Positions 11,142 through 33,656 of a stretch of DNA of 64,000 bases are shown piece after piece. The stretch spans positions 97 through 64,096 of the forward strand of contig JAFBAN010000248.1 of assembly GCA_019247775.1 (NCBI GenBank), written 5' to 3'. This DNA comes from Chitinophagaceae bacterium (GTDB lineage Bacteria > Bacteroidota > Bacteroidia > Chitinophagales > Chitinophagaceae). Numbering within the stretch: the first letter of the stretch is position 1; every line of letters begins with the position of its first letter. The notes beneath the pieces are model-generated. The model was not told the origin of the DNA and did not search any database. It was given only the letters and a program-made list of their open reading frames with translations. A program made the translations under genes and the position numbers.

Positions 11142-12044
11142 TCAGTGTTTCAGCGCTGCTATCCGCTTCTTCAATTCCTCATCCCCGGGTTTTAAAGCCA
11201 AGGCGCGTTCAAGCGCAGTTGCAGCTTCGATCGTTCGCCCCGATCTGATCAGCACATCTGCGAGCGAGCTTAAGGCAGATGCGCTTTCCGGAAAAAGCAG
11301 GCTGTTCAGTTGGAACACATTCAATGCCTCTGTTGTCTTACCTGCAGCGAGCAGCATATTTGCATAACCGGCAAATTCTCCATAGTATTTTACGATCGGT
11401 TTGAGCTGCGCAGCTGCCCGCTGCAATTCTGTAAGATCCATGGCACTCCCTCCGCTGGCATTTTCCTGCCAGTAGGCGATGGCCTGGTAGTTGGGATGAT
11501 AGGACTCGTGTTTCAGGATCGAGAGCAGGTCTTTTTCCAGTGACAGTACCGGCGATTCAATGATCCTTCCCAATTCCTTTTTCCCTTCATACACAATAAA
11601 AGTGGGCACGTGATGGATATTTTTTCCCTGCTCTTCATGCTGCGGGCTCTGCTTATAGCTGGCGGCGGCATTGTCTACAAAGATCAGCGCCAGCCGGTTG
11701 GTATCCACACCTGCCTGTTGTAATATCTTGAGCATACGGGGCACTTCACGCCGGCTATCTCCACACCAGGAGCCCAGGAAAATCTCCATGGTCTTACCCT
11801 TCAGCAGCGGTCTGAGCTGCAGTACCGAATTCGTATCGGTTGAATAAGTATTGTACGACTGATCGAACCAGTTTTTATAATTGGGCCAGCCAAGCACGGC
11901 AGGAGAAGCATGTCCGGCCAGGATCAGCTGACCATTCGCATTTTTGATCTCGGTATTGATGACCTGCGTTCCGGTTGGAAGCATGGCGCGTTGGCAGGCA
12001 GCAGCGAATGAAATGGCTGCTACCAGAAAAAAAATATTTTTCAT
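11142..12044 (-). CDS. Lipoprotein with thioredoxin-like (WCGDS) domain and C-terminal TPR repeats
   Basis: Signal peptide ending FAAAC, FLGSWCGDS, VPTFI, GRIIESP, and an Ala/Leu helical TPR tail. Confidence 0.8.
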   Translation of the reverse strand: MKNIFFLVAAISFAAACQRAMLPTGTQVINTEIKNANGQLILAGHASPAVLGWPNYKNWFDQSYNTYSTDTNSVLQLRPLLKGKTMEIFLGSWCGDSRREVPRMLKILQQAGVDTNRLALIFVDNAAASYKQSPQHEEQGKNIHHVPTFIVYEGKKELGRIIESPVLSLEKDLLSILKHESYHPNYQAIAYWQENASGGSAMDLTELQRAAAQLKPIVKYYGEFAGYANMLLAAGKTTEALNVFQLNSLLFPESASALSSLADVLIRSGRTIEAATALERALALKPGDEELKKRIAALKH

Positions 12045-12101
12045 GAATGAATTGTTGAAGATGATAAATGAGTTTACGGCTGGTACCGAATGCTTAAGCA
12101 A

Positions 12102-12198
12102 CCCTTTGCGAACCTTGCGTTCCTTTGCGGACTTTGCGTTACTGCCGGGTTCAGGATTTTGTAGCGCAGGGAACACAGGGAACCGCAGGGAACGCAGG
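12102..12198. repeat. ctttgcg/cgcaggg-unit palindromic element
   Basis: About four 9-10 nt units inverted against four cgcagggaac units. Relatives at 18356 and 21807. Confidence 0.8.
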
Positions 12199-29270: not shown

Positions 29271-30026
29271 ATGAAACTACTCGCAGGAAAAGTATCGATC
29301 GTTACCGGCGCCGCTCGCGGCATCGGGGCAGCTATTGCGCTTAAACTGGCCGAACATGGCAGCGATGTGGCCTTCAGCTATGTGAGCGACAGCAGTGCGG
29401 AAAAAGCGAAAGCCCTGGAAGCCCAACTGCAGGCGCTCGGCGTAAAAGCCAAAGCTTACCAGAGTAATGCCGGCGATTTTGCGCAGTGCGAAACATTTGT
29501 AAATGAGGTCTTGAAAGATATGGGCAAGGTGGATGTCTGCGTTAACAATGCCGGCATCTCCAAGGACAACCTGCTGCTGCGCATGACGGCCGAACAATGG
29601 GATGAAGTGATGGACATCAACCTGAAAAGCGTATTCAATATGACCAAGCAGGTGATCCGGCCGATGATGAAAGCGAAGAATGGCAGTATCATCAATATGA
29701 GCTCTATCGTTGGTATCCGGGGTAATGCCGGGCAAAGCAGCTATGCTGCGAGTAAAGCCGGTATCATCGGCTTCACCAAATCGGTAGCGCTCGAACTGGG
29801 CAGCCGCAATATCCGCTGCAATGCCATTGCGCCTGGTTTTGTGGAAACCGATATGACCCATTATCTGAAAGAAGGTGATGGGGCAACTGAGTTCCTGAAA
29901 AAAATTCCACTTTCACGTTTTGGCAAAGCGGAAGAGATCGCGGATACAACTCTATTCCTCGCCAGCGATATGGCTTCTTATGTGACGGGGCAGGTGCTAA
30001 GTGTTTGCGGGGGATTGAACATTTAA
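29271..30026 (+). CDS. fabG: 3-oxoacyl-ACP reductase
   Basis: TGAARGIG, NNAGISKD, GNAGQSSYAASK and APGFVETDM. -7 box at 29246-29253. Confidence 0.93.
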   Translation: MKLLAGKVSIVTGAARGIGAAIALKLAEHGSDVAFSYVSDSSAEKAKALEAQLQALGVKAKAYQSNAGDFAQCETFVNEVLKDMGKVDVCVNNAGISKDNLLLRMTAEQWDEVMDINLKSVFNMTKQVIRPMMKAKNGSIINMSSIVGIRGNAGQSSYAASKAGIIGFTKSVALELGSRNIRCNAIAPGFVETDMTHYLKEGDGATEFLKKIPLSRFGKAEEIADTTLFLASDMASYVTGQVLSVCGGLNI

Positions 30027-30058
30027 TCTGTTAGCTTTTAGCAGGAATGCATTAATTA

Positions 30059-30178
30059 CTCCGCGAAACTCTGCTCCTCATGTTCTCTGCGGTGAAAAGC
30101 CAATTCGATATTTAGCGGGCCGCTATAACGGAGGAATTTTACCGCAGAGAACATGAGATAGCAGCGTTTACGCAGAGT
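30059..30178. repeat. cgcagag/ctctgcg palindromic element
   Basis: catgttctctgcggtgaaaa versus ttttaccgcagagaacatg (one mismatch). Confidence 0.8.
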
Positions 30179-30246
30179 GAAAGATTTTGTTAAAGCCAAC
30201 CACTAATAGCTTCCTTCAGATTTTGTCCTTATTTTCGCGGCAATCT

Positions 30247-30549
30247 ATGCGGAAAAAACTCTCCACACTTTTTCTTCTACTGGTGCTCAGCATCCAGGCC
30301 CTGCCCGTAAAGCAGATGGGGCTGGCCCTGTTCAGCAACCAGTTCACGGAAGAGTTGCCGCATGCATTCGATACGGAAAAGGACTGCTGTAAAAAATCCG
30401 GGTTTAAGAGCGATTTCATCGAGACGCCAATGCTGGCCCTTAACAACAGCCAGTTCGATCTTCCATTACTATGTCATCCCACCGCCGCTGCCATCCCGCA
30501 GAACCATACCGGCGAGATCCATGTGCCCCCGCCCAATGTTTGCGCTTAA
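30247..30549 (+). CDS. Small secreted protein with CC motif and C-terminal HVPPP
   Basis: Signal-like N-terminus, DCCKK and IHVPPPNVCA. 40 nt upstream of SulP. Confidence 0.8.
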   Translation: MRKKLSTLFLLLVLSIQALPVKQMGLALFSNQFTEELPHAFDTEKDCCKKSGFKSDFIETPMLALNNSQFDLPLLCHPTAAAIPQNHTGEIHVPPPNVCA

Positions 30550-30589
30550 CTGAGTAAGCAACTTTTTTATTTCATTTAAGTTCAGCATC

Positions 30590-32155
30590 ATGAAAAAATA
30601 TTTTCAGCATGCGGGCAGTGATCTGCCCGCGGCTATCGTAGTATTCCTGGTGGCCCTGCCGCTGTGCCTGGGCATCGCCCTGGGGTCGGGTGCACCGCTT
30701 TTTTCGGGTATCATCGCAGGCATTACCGGCGGTATCGTTATCGGCATGCTCAGCGGTTCGCAACTAAGCATCAGCGGACCGGCAGCGGGGCTCACCGTTA
30801 TCGTAGCCGCAGCCATTATCAGGCTGCAGGTATACGAAGCGTTTTTACTGGCAGTAGTACTTGCCGGATTTTTCCAGCTCATTTTCGGTTTTATCCGCGC
30901 AGGCGTGCTCGGCGATTATGTGCCCAATGCCGTGATCAAGGGCATGCTCGCGGCCATCGGGCTTATCCTCATCATGAAACAGTTCCCCCATCTTGTCGGT
31001 TACGATGCGGATTTCGAGGGCGATGAAGGATTCGCGCAGGCCGATACGAACAACACTTTCTCCGGCATCCTGCAGGCAATCGGCAGGATCCACCCGATGG
31101 CAGTAGTGATCGGCTCGGTTTCGCTGTTCCTGCTTTTTCTGTGGGAAAGACCGGCGATGAAATCGTTCATCATACTCAAGCTGGTACCCGGACCGCTGGT
31201 TGCGGTGTTGTCGGGGATCGCATTGCATGCTTTCGTCCTGAACAATTATCCGGGCTACGCGTTAGGCAAAGAACAACTGGTTACATTGCCCGTAGCAGAT
31301 TCCATGCAATCGTTCGTATCCTTTTTTACATTTCCGGATATCAAACATCTGAGCAATCCCGCTGTATGGACCAGCGCCATCACCATTGCCATCGTTGCGA
31401 GCCTTGAAACATTGCTCGGCATCGAAGCCGCAGATAAACTGGATCCGCTCAAACGCGTTACCCCGCCCAACCGCGAGCTGAAAGCGCAGGGCATCGGCAA
31501 TATGGTGTCGGGGCTGCTCGGCGGATTGCCGCTCACTTCCGTAGTGGTGAGAACATCCGCCAATATTTCCGCCGGCGCCAGAACACGTTTCTCTGCGATC
31601 ATGCATGGCCTGCTGTTGCTGGTATGCGTGATGTTCATTCCATCACTGCTGAATAAAATACCGCTCAGCGCTTTGGCAGCCGTACTTATCTTTACTGGGT
31701 ATAAGCTGGCGAAGATCTCGCTGTTCAAACAGTTCTTTCAGAAAGGCTGGGACCAGTTCGTACCATTCGTGGTAACGATAGCGGCCATCCTTATCACCGA
31801 CCTACTGACAGGCATCCTGATCGGCATCGGCGTGGGATTGTTCTTTATGGTAAGAAGCAATTTTCGCTCATCGGTGTTCATGGTGAAGGACGCAAACCAT
31901 TTCCTGATCCGGCTCAGGAAAGATGTATCCTTCCTGAACAAGCCGATCGTGAAAAAAACCCTGGAAGATGTGCCCGAGAACGCAGCGGTACTGATCGACG
32001 CCAGCAGGGCCGATTTTATCGATAAGGATGTGATCGAAGAGATCAATAATTTTCTTTGTCATGCCCACCTGAAGAATATCAGGGTGGAAGTCAGAAAAAG
32101 CATGACCAACCCAATGCATATTTTATTTATGGAACCTAAAACACCCGCAGCATGA
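30590..32155 (+). CDS. SulP/SLC26 family anion (likely bicarbonate) transporter
   Basis: [37 protein letters not shown] and a short STAS-like tail. ATGA overlap with the carbonic anhydrase. Confidence 0.93.
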
Positions 32156-32787
32156 AAGCATACGAAAAACTATTACTGGAAAACAAAGCCTGGGCACACG
32201 AAAAAGTAGCCGACGACCCCGAATATTTTCAACGATTGTCAGGACTGCAGACGCCCGAATTCCTGTGGATCGGCTGCAGCGACAGTCGCGTGCCCGCCAA
32301 TGAGATCACCAATACACAGCCCGGCGAGATCTTTGTTCACCGTAATATCGCCAACATGGTGATCCATACCGATGTGAACCTGCTGAGCGTTCTCGAATAT
32401 GCCGTTGCACATCTCAAGGTAAAACATGTGATCGTTTGCGGTCATTATGGATGCGGCGGCGTTAAAGCGGCCATGACCAATCACGATTTCAAACAGGTGC
32501 TGAATATGTGGCTGCGCAATATCAAAGATGTATACCGCCTGCACCGCTCCGAACTGGATGGGATCACCGATGAAGAAAAAAGGGCAGACCGGCTGGTAGA
32601 GCTGAATGTGCGTGAACAGGTACAGCATCTTGCCAAAACCTCCATCATCCAGCGCGCCTGGAAAAATGAGCAGCGTCCCGACCTGCATGGCTGGGTATAC
32701 GGACTGAAAGACGGCATCATCAATCCCGTTTTCGAAATGAAAGCAGGTACCCATATCGATCCGCTGTACGAATACGATGACCTGTGA
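32152..32787 (+). CDS. can: Beta-class carbonic anhydrase
   Basis: [17 protein letters not shown] and CGHYGCGG zinc ligands. Confidence 0.96.
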
Positions 32788-32806
32788 TCGTTCAGGCATA
32801 ATATGG

Positions 32807-32833
32807 AAGGCGCAGGAAATCCTGCGCCTTTTT
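32807..32833 (+). terminator. Intrinsic terminator after can
   Basis: aaggcgcagg-aaat-cctgcgcctt followed by ttt. Confidence 0.85.
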
Positions 32834-32849
32834 CATGCCTTCAAATAAT

Positions 32850-33296
32850 TTAAACGGCTTTCGCCTCTCGTTCTTCCGGCACCTTCAACTGGCCGTATTT
32901 ATCCTTGAGGAAAGCGGAAAGGATCTCGCTGATCTCATATTTCCAGTCCGACACGGTAGGGGGTTTGGTAAGATAACATGCCGCACCAAGCTCCCAGGTA
33001 TCGTCCATATCACGTTCGGATGAGGAAGTGGTACAGATGATCACCGGGGTATTCTTATGTCGCACCATGTGTTTGATCATGGACAGGCAATGTTTTCCGG
33101 AGAGTTTGGGCATATTCAGATCGAGAAAGATCAGGTCTGGGCAGAGTTCGGTATCTGTTTCGAGAAGCCGCATGGCAGACTGGCTATCCTTGTGCAGGAA
33201 ACAATGAATGCCGCGATCGATATCTTTCACAGCCTGGTAAAAAAAACTCAGATCATCCTCGTCGTCGTCGATGAATAGTAGGGTGGTCGTGTTCAT
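32850..33296 (-). CDS. Stand-alone response regulator receiver protein
   Basis: IDDDEDD, FLDLNMP phospho-Asp, TTSS and LTKP. Confidence 0.9.
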   Translation of the reverse strand: MNTTTLLFIDDDEDDLSFFYQAVKDIDRGIHCFLHKDSQSAMRLLETDTELCPDLIFLDLNMPKLSGKHCLSMIKHMVRHKNTPVIICTTSSSERDMDDTWELGAACYLTKPPTVSDWKYEISEILSAFLKDKYGQLKVPEEREAKAV

Positions 33297-33467
33297 ACTT
33301 ATCGGATTTCGGTAACAGTTTTAAAAGTAACAAACACCGGTCCACCGCAGAGGTATTATGCGAAGACATGTAAATTTTATCATTTCATTAAACAACTGGG
33401 TAATTGGCCTCCCCAAAAGGAGATAGCATGGTTTTTTCAGGTATATGGGGAGATCCAATATCAGATC

Positions 33468-33656
33468 ATGAGACAGATCCTACGATATTTAACGTACCAG
33501 GAATTGCTGGACCGCCTGGTGGCCCTTACTGATCATCTGGCCACCTGCAGGGGGTTGAATGCGTCGTATGAGTTCTGTAAGATGGACATCGAGGAAACCC
33601 AGGAGGAGATAGTTTCCCGCAGACCTGAAGGAACCCGGTCTAACAACGATCATTAA
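33468..33656 (+). CDS. Small hypothetical helical protein (62 aa)
   Basis: Fills the gap between the response regulator and the enoyl-CoA hydratase; helical-hairpin-like pattern. Confidence 0.6.
   Translation: MRQILRYLTYQELLDRLVALTDHLATCRGLNASYEFCKMDIEETQEEIVSRRPEGTRSNNDH

Follow-up and report, generated by a model that had tools for sequence, protein, structure and literature searches.

Does the small open reading frame (ORF) that lies immediately ahead of a SulP transporter gene and a carbonic anhydrase (CA) gene in a Chitinophagaceae genome encode a working protein, or does its translation control the genes that follow? The ORF is located in a stretch of 64,000 nucleotides (nt) of contig JAFBAN010000248.1 (positions 97 to 64,096, forward strand; assembly GCA_019247775.1), hereafter referred to as the window. 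An earlier, sequence-only reading of the window proposed that a short protein ending in a run of prolines stalls ribosomes ahead of the SulP and CA genes, coupling secretion or metal status to carbon acquisition. The analysis described here leads us to favour, with modest confidence, a related answer: the ORF is probably a cis-acting, regulatory leader of a leader-SulP-beta-CA operon, on which ribosomes would pause, rather than a gene for a working protein. The basis for this reading was computed, and consists of (i) conservation, (ii) architecture, (iii) gene linkage, (iv) a hairpin, and (v) the lack of an internal consensus promoter box.

The leader ORF is conserved at both ends and in length

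The product of the leader ORF starts with MRKKLSTLFLLLVLSIQALPVKQMGLALFSNQFTEELPH and ends with AIPQNHTGEIHVPPPNVCA (IHVPPPNVCA); coordinates of all features are listed in Table 1. A word-indexed search retrieved 31 close homologues (49–70% identity, nearly all 97–99 amino acids (aa) long), and when 1.8 billion cluster representatives were searched with a profile, 312 clusters reached E 1e-3 or better, their lengths almost always being 93–110 aa. Leader length is near-constant, at 98–102 aa. Searches of Pfam and NCBIfam and a profile search of PDB gave no match, nor did an Rfam scan over positions 29500–33500, and the source annotations seen for leader ORFs, few in number, read 'hypothetical protein'. 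We take the ORF to be a real gene, which is conserved and has no name.

Conservation is found at both ends of the protein: an N-terminal helix followed by LP[VI]xQxG..NQxTEExPH, and a C-terminal IPxNH..[DE]I.[TV]PPPN. The invariant columns of the close-homologue alignment are V13, Q17, L19, P20, Q23, G25, L28, F29, N31, F33, T34, E35, E36 and H39. When supplied with an alignment, AF2 predicts a helix at residues 2–34 (pLDDT 76–87) and no further fold, with residues 39–87 at pLDDT <50. The signal-like N-terminus described in the sequence-only reading is thus present, as a basic stretch followed by this hydrophobic helix. It is more likely to be an uncleaved signal-anchor than a cleaved signal peptide, because in most homologues I, T, V or M occupies what would be position -1 for signal peptidase.

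The region between the two ends behaves differently. The fraction of sequences carrying the majority residue is 0.23 in the spacer, as opposed to 0.57 and 0.60 at the ends (alignment A2), while the distance from TEE to PPP has a median of 59 residues and an interquartile range of only 58–60 (n=155). Since the length of the spacer is constant while its sequence varies and is predicted to be disordered, it looks like a molecular ruler rather than a folded domain.

A polyproline run lies at a conserved place next to the stop codon

In the window, the run of three prolines lies four residues ahead of the stop codon. It is invariant across the 31 close homologues, and among 180 representatives of the wider family the last 16 residues contain PPP in 168 and PP in another seven, 175 in all. 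Elsewhere in these representatives only nine PP pairs occur in approximately 15,000 residues, meaning that the C-terminal PPP noticed earlier is present far above chance. Between two and five residues follow the last proline in 155 of the 175. Directly after the prolines, 149 of the 175 have N and 18 have D; ahead of PPP, T is the commonest residue, followed by V, S or C. The proline codons differ synonymously between loci, which argues that selection acts on the peptide.

The residues surrounding the prolines bear on how strongly a ribosome might pause. In E. coli, PPP stalls ribosomes least when it is preceded by T, C, S or L, and an Asn or Asp that follows PP strengthens the stall (PMC4176338). 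With a weak-staller residue preceding PPP and a strengthening Asn or Asp following it, any pause at the leader PPP may, by analogy, be short and dependent on EF-P. Genes for EF-P and for Rho are both present in the genome.

The leader is linked to SulP across Bacteroidota

The SulP gene of the window starts 40 nt past the leader stop codon (ATG at 30590). The SulP stop and beta-CA start overlap in an ATGA at 32152–32155, and the two genes are adjacent and co-oriented; matches to PF00916 and PF00484 confirm the earlier description of a small ORF 40 nt ahead of a SulP and beta-CA gene pair. The beta-CA is near E. coli Can: it scores 240 bits with PRK10437, for which the cut-off is 251. The SulP protein has a hydrophobic N-terminus of its own, and scores under the equivalog cut-offs for BicA, DauA and sulP; no substrate was assigned from the family models.

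Linkage was followed in two sets of loci: 58 close loci, from one-genome-per-species contigs of Sediminibacterium and other Chitinophagaceae, and 60 distant loci drawn from more diverged family members. SulP lies directly 3' of the leader in 57 of the 58 close loci, including those where the upstream fabG gene is absent, and a CA gene is also present in every close locus that is not cut by a contig end. SulP is next in 52 of the 60 distant loci, where it is 46–73% identical to the window SulP and mostly accompanied by CA. The conservation of position on which the stalling proposal depended is borne out by these counts (109 of 118 loci, mostly with a beta-CA gene). Cultured carriers of the leader include Sediminibacterium goheungense DSM 28323 (L034) and Limnovirga soli KCS-6 (L056). 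In the one exception among the 58 (L050) a natural deletion has spared both leader and CA: the leader is intact and is followed by only a C-terminal SulP fragment (residues 456–513), then by CA. Two tandem leader copies precede a single SulP-CA pair in six loci (L004, L029, L030, L035, L037 and L040), and again in contig C15 of genome G623.

The remaining eight distant loci comprise four in which a diverged leader precedes genes for an ABC transporter, HlyD and TolC (L061, L062, L064 and L065), one with the order leader, CA, ABC, HlyD (L078), two with CA alone, and one with neither. The diverged leaders of the five loci with ABC genes end in TPPPNFC, TPPPDFA or RPPRC. Members ahead of ABC transporter-HlyD-TolC genes would be consistent with a small protein that is itself exported, as a signal or bacteriocin-like cargo, with the transporter neighbours reflecting its export. 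This we consider very improbable indeed: there is no double-glycine leader, the ABC proteins start with membrane segments and not with a peptidase domain, and by far the most members precede SulP-CA, whose products do not export peptides.

By profile search, 143 of 401 Chitinophagaceae genomes sampled carry the leader family, which is present in 65 of 151 genera; in a sample of 401 genomes from the phylum as a whole, only 13 carry it. In a cross-tabulation, the leader adjoins 63 of the best 150 Chitinophagaceae SulP orthologues. Inspection of 20 Chitinophagaceae SulP loci without the leader family revealed a different PPP-ending small ORF upstream in 17, and no ORF in three. A second leader family (L121–L139) consists of a membrane helix, NPAGPDEKSP, [FS][TS]EEY[IL]H, and HFE[LI]LSPPPE[A] before the stop, and lies 85–240 nt ahead of SulP; it has an (F)TEE..H-like motif as does the window family, at another distance from PPP. 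Further afield, nine other Bacteroidota families were sampled with 20 SulP loci, of which 12 have a membrane ORF of 97–114 aa just upstream that ends in ..PPP[E/N/D] or ..PP... Endings among L145–L160 include CIPPPESL, TPPPNVI, SPPPEA, APPPNVA or similar, and several of these ORFs carry an acidic patch and then His (SEEEPHSH, AEEEVH, ELEHEG). The window-family profile does not detect these other membrane ORFs, with endings of the type PPP[E/K/D]. Hence, the leader architecture is far wider than any one sequence family.

A different account of the linkage is that the product of the ORF is a true small membrane protein with a single span, serving SulP as an accessory or regulatory subunit, much as other small membrane proteins serve their transporters, with PPPN as a functional C-terminal motif and the hairpin as a leaky terminator or stabiliser that sets the product ratio. 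Tight and ancient co-occurrence with SulP, a well-conserved membrane helix and adjoining motif, near-constant length, and the weak stalling expected in E. coli of a T before PPP (PMC4176338) are all what such a subunit would predict. Yet beyond the N-terminal helix the protein is predicted to be disordered and its sequence is barely conserved; what is kept best is how far PPP lies from the stop codon. Furthermore, leader families that are not linked by profile have only their architecture in common, some members precede ABC-HlyD-TolC genes or CA alone, without SulP, and the positive-inside rule would put the C-terminus in the periplasm, away from the cytoplasmic CA. We therefore think it unlikely that the ORF encodes a subunit.

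A hairpin begins where a paused ribosome would end

In the minimum-energy fold of the window sequence, UGUUUGC (30537–30543) pairs with GUAAGCA (30554–30560) at -6.7 kcal/mol. A hairpin with a T-run overlapping the stop codon had been described in the sequence-only reading and is present, the gctta/taagc pairing given there being an alternative register of the same hairpin. When each close locus was folded separately (42 nt from the third Pro codon), an equivalent hairpin was obtained in 57 of 58, with a median of -6.2 kcal/mol and a mean z of -1.9 against shuffles. The 5' arm begins a median of 5 nt past the first base of the third Pro codon (+3 to +7 in 47 of the 57 loci). The hairpin spans the stop codon in 54 loci, with a median of seven T in the 12 nt after the stem. 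The arms vary by lineage (GCTAAC/GTTAGC, TGCTGA/TCAGCA, TTGCTAGTCTTA/TAAGATTAGTAA), and the partner of the middle base of the stop codon covaries with it: A pairs with T (U) in 19 of 19 cases, and G with C in 11 and with U in five. Loci with tandem leaders have hairpins after the first copy too; three of six begin at the Asn-Cys-stop codons and overlap the stop (L004, L035 and L040). A strict consensus terminator scan did not call the leader hairpin.

The hairpin is a property of relatives with a short gap. Mean hairpin z is -1.64 where the gap to the next gene is at most 80 nt, -0.37 where it exceeds 80 nt, and -0.27 in the other leader families tested. With regard to the read-through gated by a hairpin that was originally proposed, one part stands, in that a ribosome paused on PPP would cover the 5' arm in the clade of the window; the proposal does not extend past the short-gap relatives to which the hairpin is confined.

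Transcription of the operon appears to begin just upstream of the leader. In 24 of the 58 close loci, an exact match to the Bacteroidota -7 consensus, TAnnTTTG, precedes the leader ATG at -21 to -13, most often at -17; the likely window box differs from the consensus by one mismatch. No exact match was found inside the leader ORF body or in the intergenic region before SulP in any of the 58. With this start, the leader mRNA is probably almost leaderless; and, with no exact -7 box between the 5' end of the leader and SulP, SulP and CA are probably transcribed through the leader from its promoter.

A pause at PPP could also act on translation, as in CutF, MifM and SecM, with the paused ribosome melting a structure that occludes the SulP start. 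The fold of a 91-nt segment of the window does pair 30536–30551 with 30574–30589, just 5' of the SulP AUG, and initiation in Bacteroidota is tuned by mRNA structure rather than by Shine-Dalgarno sites (PMC6847099). We simulated occupancy by masking the ribosome footprint, which raised the predicted accessibility of the start from 0.40 to 0.46 in the window, 0.39 to 0.53 in L028, 0.45 to 0.61 in L039, and 0.52 to 0.68 in L042. However, mean accessibility over 55 loci was unchanged (0.564 vs 0.566), and unmasking of the SulP start is not supported on average. In addition, the long fold of the window is no better than those of shuffled sequences (z -0.44), the hairpin is local in most loci, ending 25–30 nt before the AUG, and the mechanism would be unworkable across gaps of 100–800 nt. 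A translational output is, in our estimation, improbable.

The leader resembles several known arrest systems

The pausing-leader reading is favoured because the layout of the ORF matches that of exported or membrane-inserted arrest leaders, namely CutF, CruR, MifM, SecM and VemP. The closest in plan is CutF, the DUF2946-like leader of cutFOG in Rhodobacter capsulatus, which has a signal peptide, a C-terminal PPP, sensitivity to EF-P, a downstream stem-loop and a cis-only action (PMC9973294; bioRxiv 10.1101/2025.02.05.636593). The CutF protein itself was not detectable in vivo. Shared with the window leader are a small first ORF, N-terminal targeting, a motif in the exported part, a C-terminal PPP, a stem-loop and a short gap, and control of the next gene in cis is what we propose here. 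By the criteria used for CutF-like leaders in PMC9973294, the window leader has 100 aa (<150), an N-terminal targeting helix, PP in the last 15 residues and a same-strand gene within <1000 nt, and its family agrees in this. CutF-like leaders precede varied transporter operons (PMC9973294), as do the diverged members here; sulfate transporters and carbonic anhydrase are not mentioned in the text of that survey.

There are also clear differences from CutF. The window leader has no sequence similarity to it and no conserved Cys motif (CxxxC or CXXC), its conserved motif being NQxTEExPH; neither it nor ten diverged members matched DUF2946 (PF11162) in an hmmscan against Pfam at E up to 0.1. Its N-terminus is probably an uncleaved anchor, and SulP and beta-CA genes, not copper genes, lie downstream. 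Finally, the hairpin recurs throughout the close loci, yet shielding of the start changes in only a few of them (slightly in the window) and not on average. Bacteroidota do not use Shine-Dalgarno sites (PMC6847099, PMC7797042).

CruR of Bordetella pertussis, a DUF2946 protein, combines C-terminal arrest at RAPP with Rho-dependent termination, and senses copper via CXXC (PMC9426467); its arrest is unaffected in an efp mutant (bioRxiv 10.1101/2025.02.05.636593). Like CruR, the leader is the upstream ORF of a transporter operon, is predicted to be exported and has a C-terminal proline motif, at which arrest has been shown for CruR and is proposed here. Unlike CruR, it has [T/V]PPPN together with a hairpin and U-run, and a Rho route is no more than a possibility, for the long-gap relatives. 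The Arg-Ala/Gly-Pro-Pro core of ApcA, ApdA, ApdP and CruR is replaced in the leader by [T/V/S]PPP[N/D], with no Arg before the proline run. In MifM (Bacillus subtilis), SecM and VemP, a stalled ribosome opens a downstream hairpin, and pulling force at the membrane relieves arrest (PMC7897499, PMC10987492). The leader has a similar length (~95–100 aa), an N-terminal membrane segment, a poorly conserved spacer and, as proposed here, an arrest point near its C-terminus. Those three, however, control Sec/YidC components, unmask a Shine-Dalgarno site and arrest at non-polyproline sequences, in contrast to the anion transporter and CA genes found here.

A survey of small secretory proteins with C-terminal proline arrest motifs places them ahead of many kinds of gene (PMC12992588), and the leader belongs to the same general class: a small secreted or membrane protein with a proline motif near its C-terminus, encoded upstream of the controlled gene. 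The survey was aimed at RAPP and RGPP, which are EF-P-refractory, and the section consulted names sec, TonB-related, metal-homeostasis and DsbA/thioredoxin neighbours, but not SulP or CA; ORFs ahead of Cu-related genes are reported there from various lineages, Bacillota and Bacteroidota being among the exceptions. Classical attenuation of the trpL/hisL type fits poorly: the leader has 100 codons rather than ~14–30, a membrane helix, and one local hairpin with no alternative pairing predicted. The leader would work like CutF, CruR and the Sec/YidC-monitoring systems but belongs to none of them. A literature search found no paper tying SulP or carbonic anhydrase to an arrest leader.

A proposed pausing leader as a switch for the SulP-CA operon

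The leader has six parts: (i) a near-leaderless first cistron, (ii) a signal-anchor, (iii) a motif at a fixed distance, (iv) a disordered spacer, (v) a near-stop polyproline, and (vi) a hairpin where the paused ribosome would end. From these we infer a pause, membrane targeting, a direction for the switch and a signal. The mRNA would begin a few bases 5' of the leader ATG, and the N-terminal signal-anchor of the nascent chain would bring the translating ribosome to the membrane. At Pro-Pro-Pro-Asn, three codons before the stop, peptide-bond formation is expected to slow. The NQxTEExPH motif would at that moment be 59 residues from the peptidyl-transferase centre, that is, beyond the exit tunnel and at the translocon or the surface of the membrane. 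How long the ribosome pauses would then depend on EF-P activity and on the pull or hold on the chain at the membrane. In the clade of the window, a ribosome with Pro95 in the P site would cover the Asn-Val-Cys-stop codons, which form the 5' arm of the hairpin ahead of the U-run. A long pause would keep the terminator-like hairpin open, and transcription, or a stable transcript, would continue into SulP and CA; a short pause would allow the hairpin to form, lowering expression. For this clade it is most economical to suppose that the ribosome prevents termination, or stabilises the transcript, at the hairpin and U-run, and by analogy with CruR a Rho-type route is plausible for the long-gap relatives.

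Bringing mRNA to the membrane might also be the whole task of the leader: the nascent chain would deliver the operon mRNA, and the pause at PPP would hold the complex while the polytopic SulP is made, with no on/off switch. Pausing on XBP1u in eukaryotes provides a parallel for delivery of mRNA to membranes. The pairing of a signal-anchor with a near-stop pause site, the membrane transporters encoded downstream in almost all contexts, and the fixed spacer length, which fits a need for an exposed helix at the pause, agree with this idea. Against this, the hydrophobic N-terminus of SulP itself serves co-translational targeting, and delivery leaves the acidic/His motif, the hairpin with its T-run and the CA-alone contexts unexplained. 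We give this idea little credence.

Several points weigh against the favoured reading, that of a cis-acting pausing leader. Conserved linkage to SulP is equally expected of a true transporter subunit. The commonest residue before PPP, T, is by comparison with E. coli a weak PPP staller (PMC4176338). Taken alone, the window hairpin is weak (z -1.81; 10 of 200 shuffles fold as well), and is counted because equivalent hairpins recur in related loci. RNAalifold found no common structure in 46 aligned sequences, because lineages differ in the register in which the 3' arm pairs; it is for this reason that folds of individual sequences and the covariation at the stop codon were used instead. The hairpin was also rejected as a universal feature, given its absence from long-gap relatives and other leader families. 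Therefore, it cannot be the general output of the system, and its proposed role is limited to the short-gap relatives. Moreover, a ribosome at the stop codon would cover the hairpin too, so a pause would alter only dwell time. Attenuation also presupposes tight coupling of RNA polymerase and ribosome in Bacteroidota.

As to the signal, the sequence-only reading had raised metal status and had noted a CC pair and His residues. Neither the CC pair nor the His ahead of PPP is conserved: many close homologues have other residues in place of the CC pair (residues 47–48), which the broad family lacks, and several loci have Leu or Asn where the window has the His before VPPP, a position that varies widely in the broad family. 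Sensing of Zn or another metal by these residues was accordingly rejected. The conserved part of the leader contains acidic residues and His, and during the pause it would be found at the outer face of the translocon, which leads us to speculate on pH, bicarbonate, a metal or membrane potential as candidate signals. A more specific and tentative version, which we regard as possible but doubtful, is that the leader acts as a membrane-spanning nascent-chain sensor for SulP-CA. In such a sensor, the PPPN-held peptide would display the acidic/His motif 59 residues out, and a signal from outside the cytoplasm or from the energy state of the membrane (such as bicarbonate or CO2, pH, membrane potential or Zn) would set how long the pause lasts and, with it, the level of read-through, with the unlinked leader families having arisen convergently across the phylum.

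Other features of the window

The window encodes a second small protein with PP in its tail, which the sequence-only reading had described as having the same layout. This is indeed the case: the protein belongs to a family of its own that ends in VFHPP plus two residues, and VFHPP[R/Q/K]x before the stop is invariant in 16 homologues. Homology between the two PP-tailed proteins was considered and rejected (hhalign probability 2.7%). The next gene on the same strand encodes a thioredoxin-like/TPR protein (11142–12176). RAPP-type upstream ORFs are reported ahead of DsbA and thioredoxin genes (PMC12992588).

Two further features flank the leader operon. Between the fabG stop and the leader promoter, a 21-nt inverted repeat (CTCATGTTCTCTGCGGTGAAA / TTTTACCGCAGAGAACATGAG; 30077–30157, + strand; 95% complementary, 39-nt spacer) occurs that has no second copy in the window; it might terminate fabG or serve the leader operon as a site for protein binding. 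On the other side, a gene for a stand-alone response-regulator receiver protein (PF00072; 32850–33296, - strand) converges on the operon terminator. It is probably unrelated, since it is found beside the operon in only one of 58 related loci (L045).

Table 1. Positions in the window of the leader, its operon and the second PP-tailed protein.
Feature	Position	Strand	Description
Likely -7 promoter box	30230–30237	+	TATTTTCG; one mismatch to Bacteroidota consensus TAnnTTTG; 17 nt ahead of leader ATG; start inferred
Leader ORF, 100 aa	30247–30549	+	MRKK, membrane helix, LFSNQFTEELPH motif, variable spacer, AIPQNHTGEIHVPPPNVCA, TAA stop (30547–30549)
N-terminal part of leader, residues 1–39	30247–30363	+	Basic N-terminus, hydrophobic helix, LP.xQMG..LFxNQFTEE.PH motif
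Variable spacer of leader, residues 40–83	30364–30495	+	Length kept, sequence not; predicted disordered (pLDDT <50)
Pro-Pro-Pro-Asn codons, proposed pause site	30526–30537	+	CCC CCG CCC AAT; Pro codons 30526–30534; PPP invariant in close family
Weak hairpin	30537–30560	+	5' arm is the Asn-Val-Cys codons; stop codon 30547–30549 in loop region
T-rich run	30562–30572	+	CUUUUUUAUUU (CTTTTTTATTT); directly 3' of hairpin; pair resembles an intrinsic terminator
SulP-family anion transporter, 521 aa	30590–32155	+	PF00916, E 3.8e-58
Beta-class carbonic anhydrase, 211 aa	32152–32787	+	PF00484, E 2.7e-57
Strong intrinsic terminator closing the operon	32805–32840	+	-28.1 kcal/mol; z -5.29; 0/200 shuffles as good
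Second small protein, 112 aa	12332–12670	-	Hydrophobic N-terminus, DC..DPxLCDCN..KADWKY core

Meaning for SulP-CA control in Bacteroidota

To our knowledge, nascent-chain sensors of the CutF/CruR type have so far been shown for copper genes in Proteobacteria, and we are aware of no account of how bicarbonate or CO2 supply is regulated in heterotrophic Bacteroidota. A leader ORF precedes SulP-CA in most sampled Chitinophagaceae, and in 12 of 20 loci of other Bacteroidota families. These ORFs lack a family name and match no Pfam or NCBIfam model, which gives their recognition some value for annotation. If the pausing-leader reading is correct, nascent-chain control would be extended to carbon and pH physiology, to a phylum that ignores Shine-Dalgarno sites, and to a motif, [T/V]PPPN, that is expected to respond to EF-P. 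The fixed 59-residue spacer provides a directly testable geometric prediction. Should the leader prove to be a membrane-spanning sensor, a CutF-like device would for the first time respond to a signal other than a metal, and would do so in bacteria whose translation initiation is not based on Shine-Dalgarno sequences.

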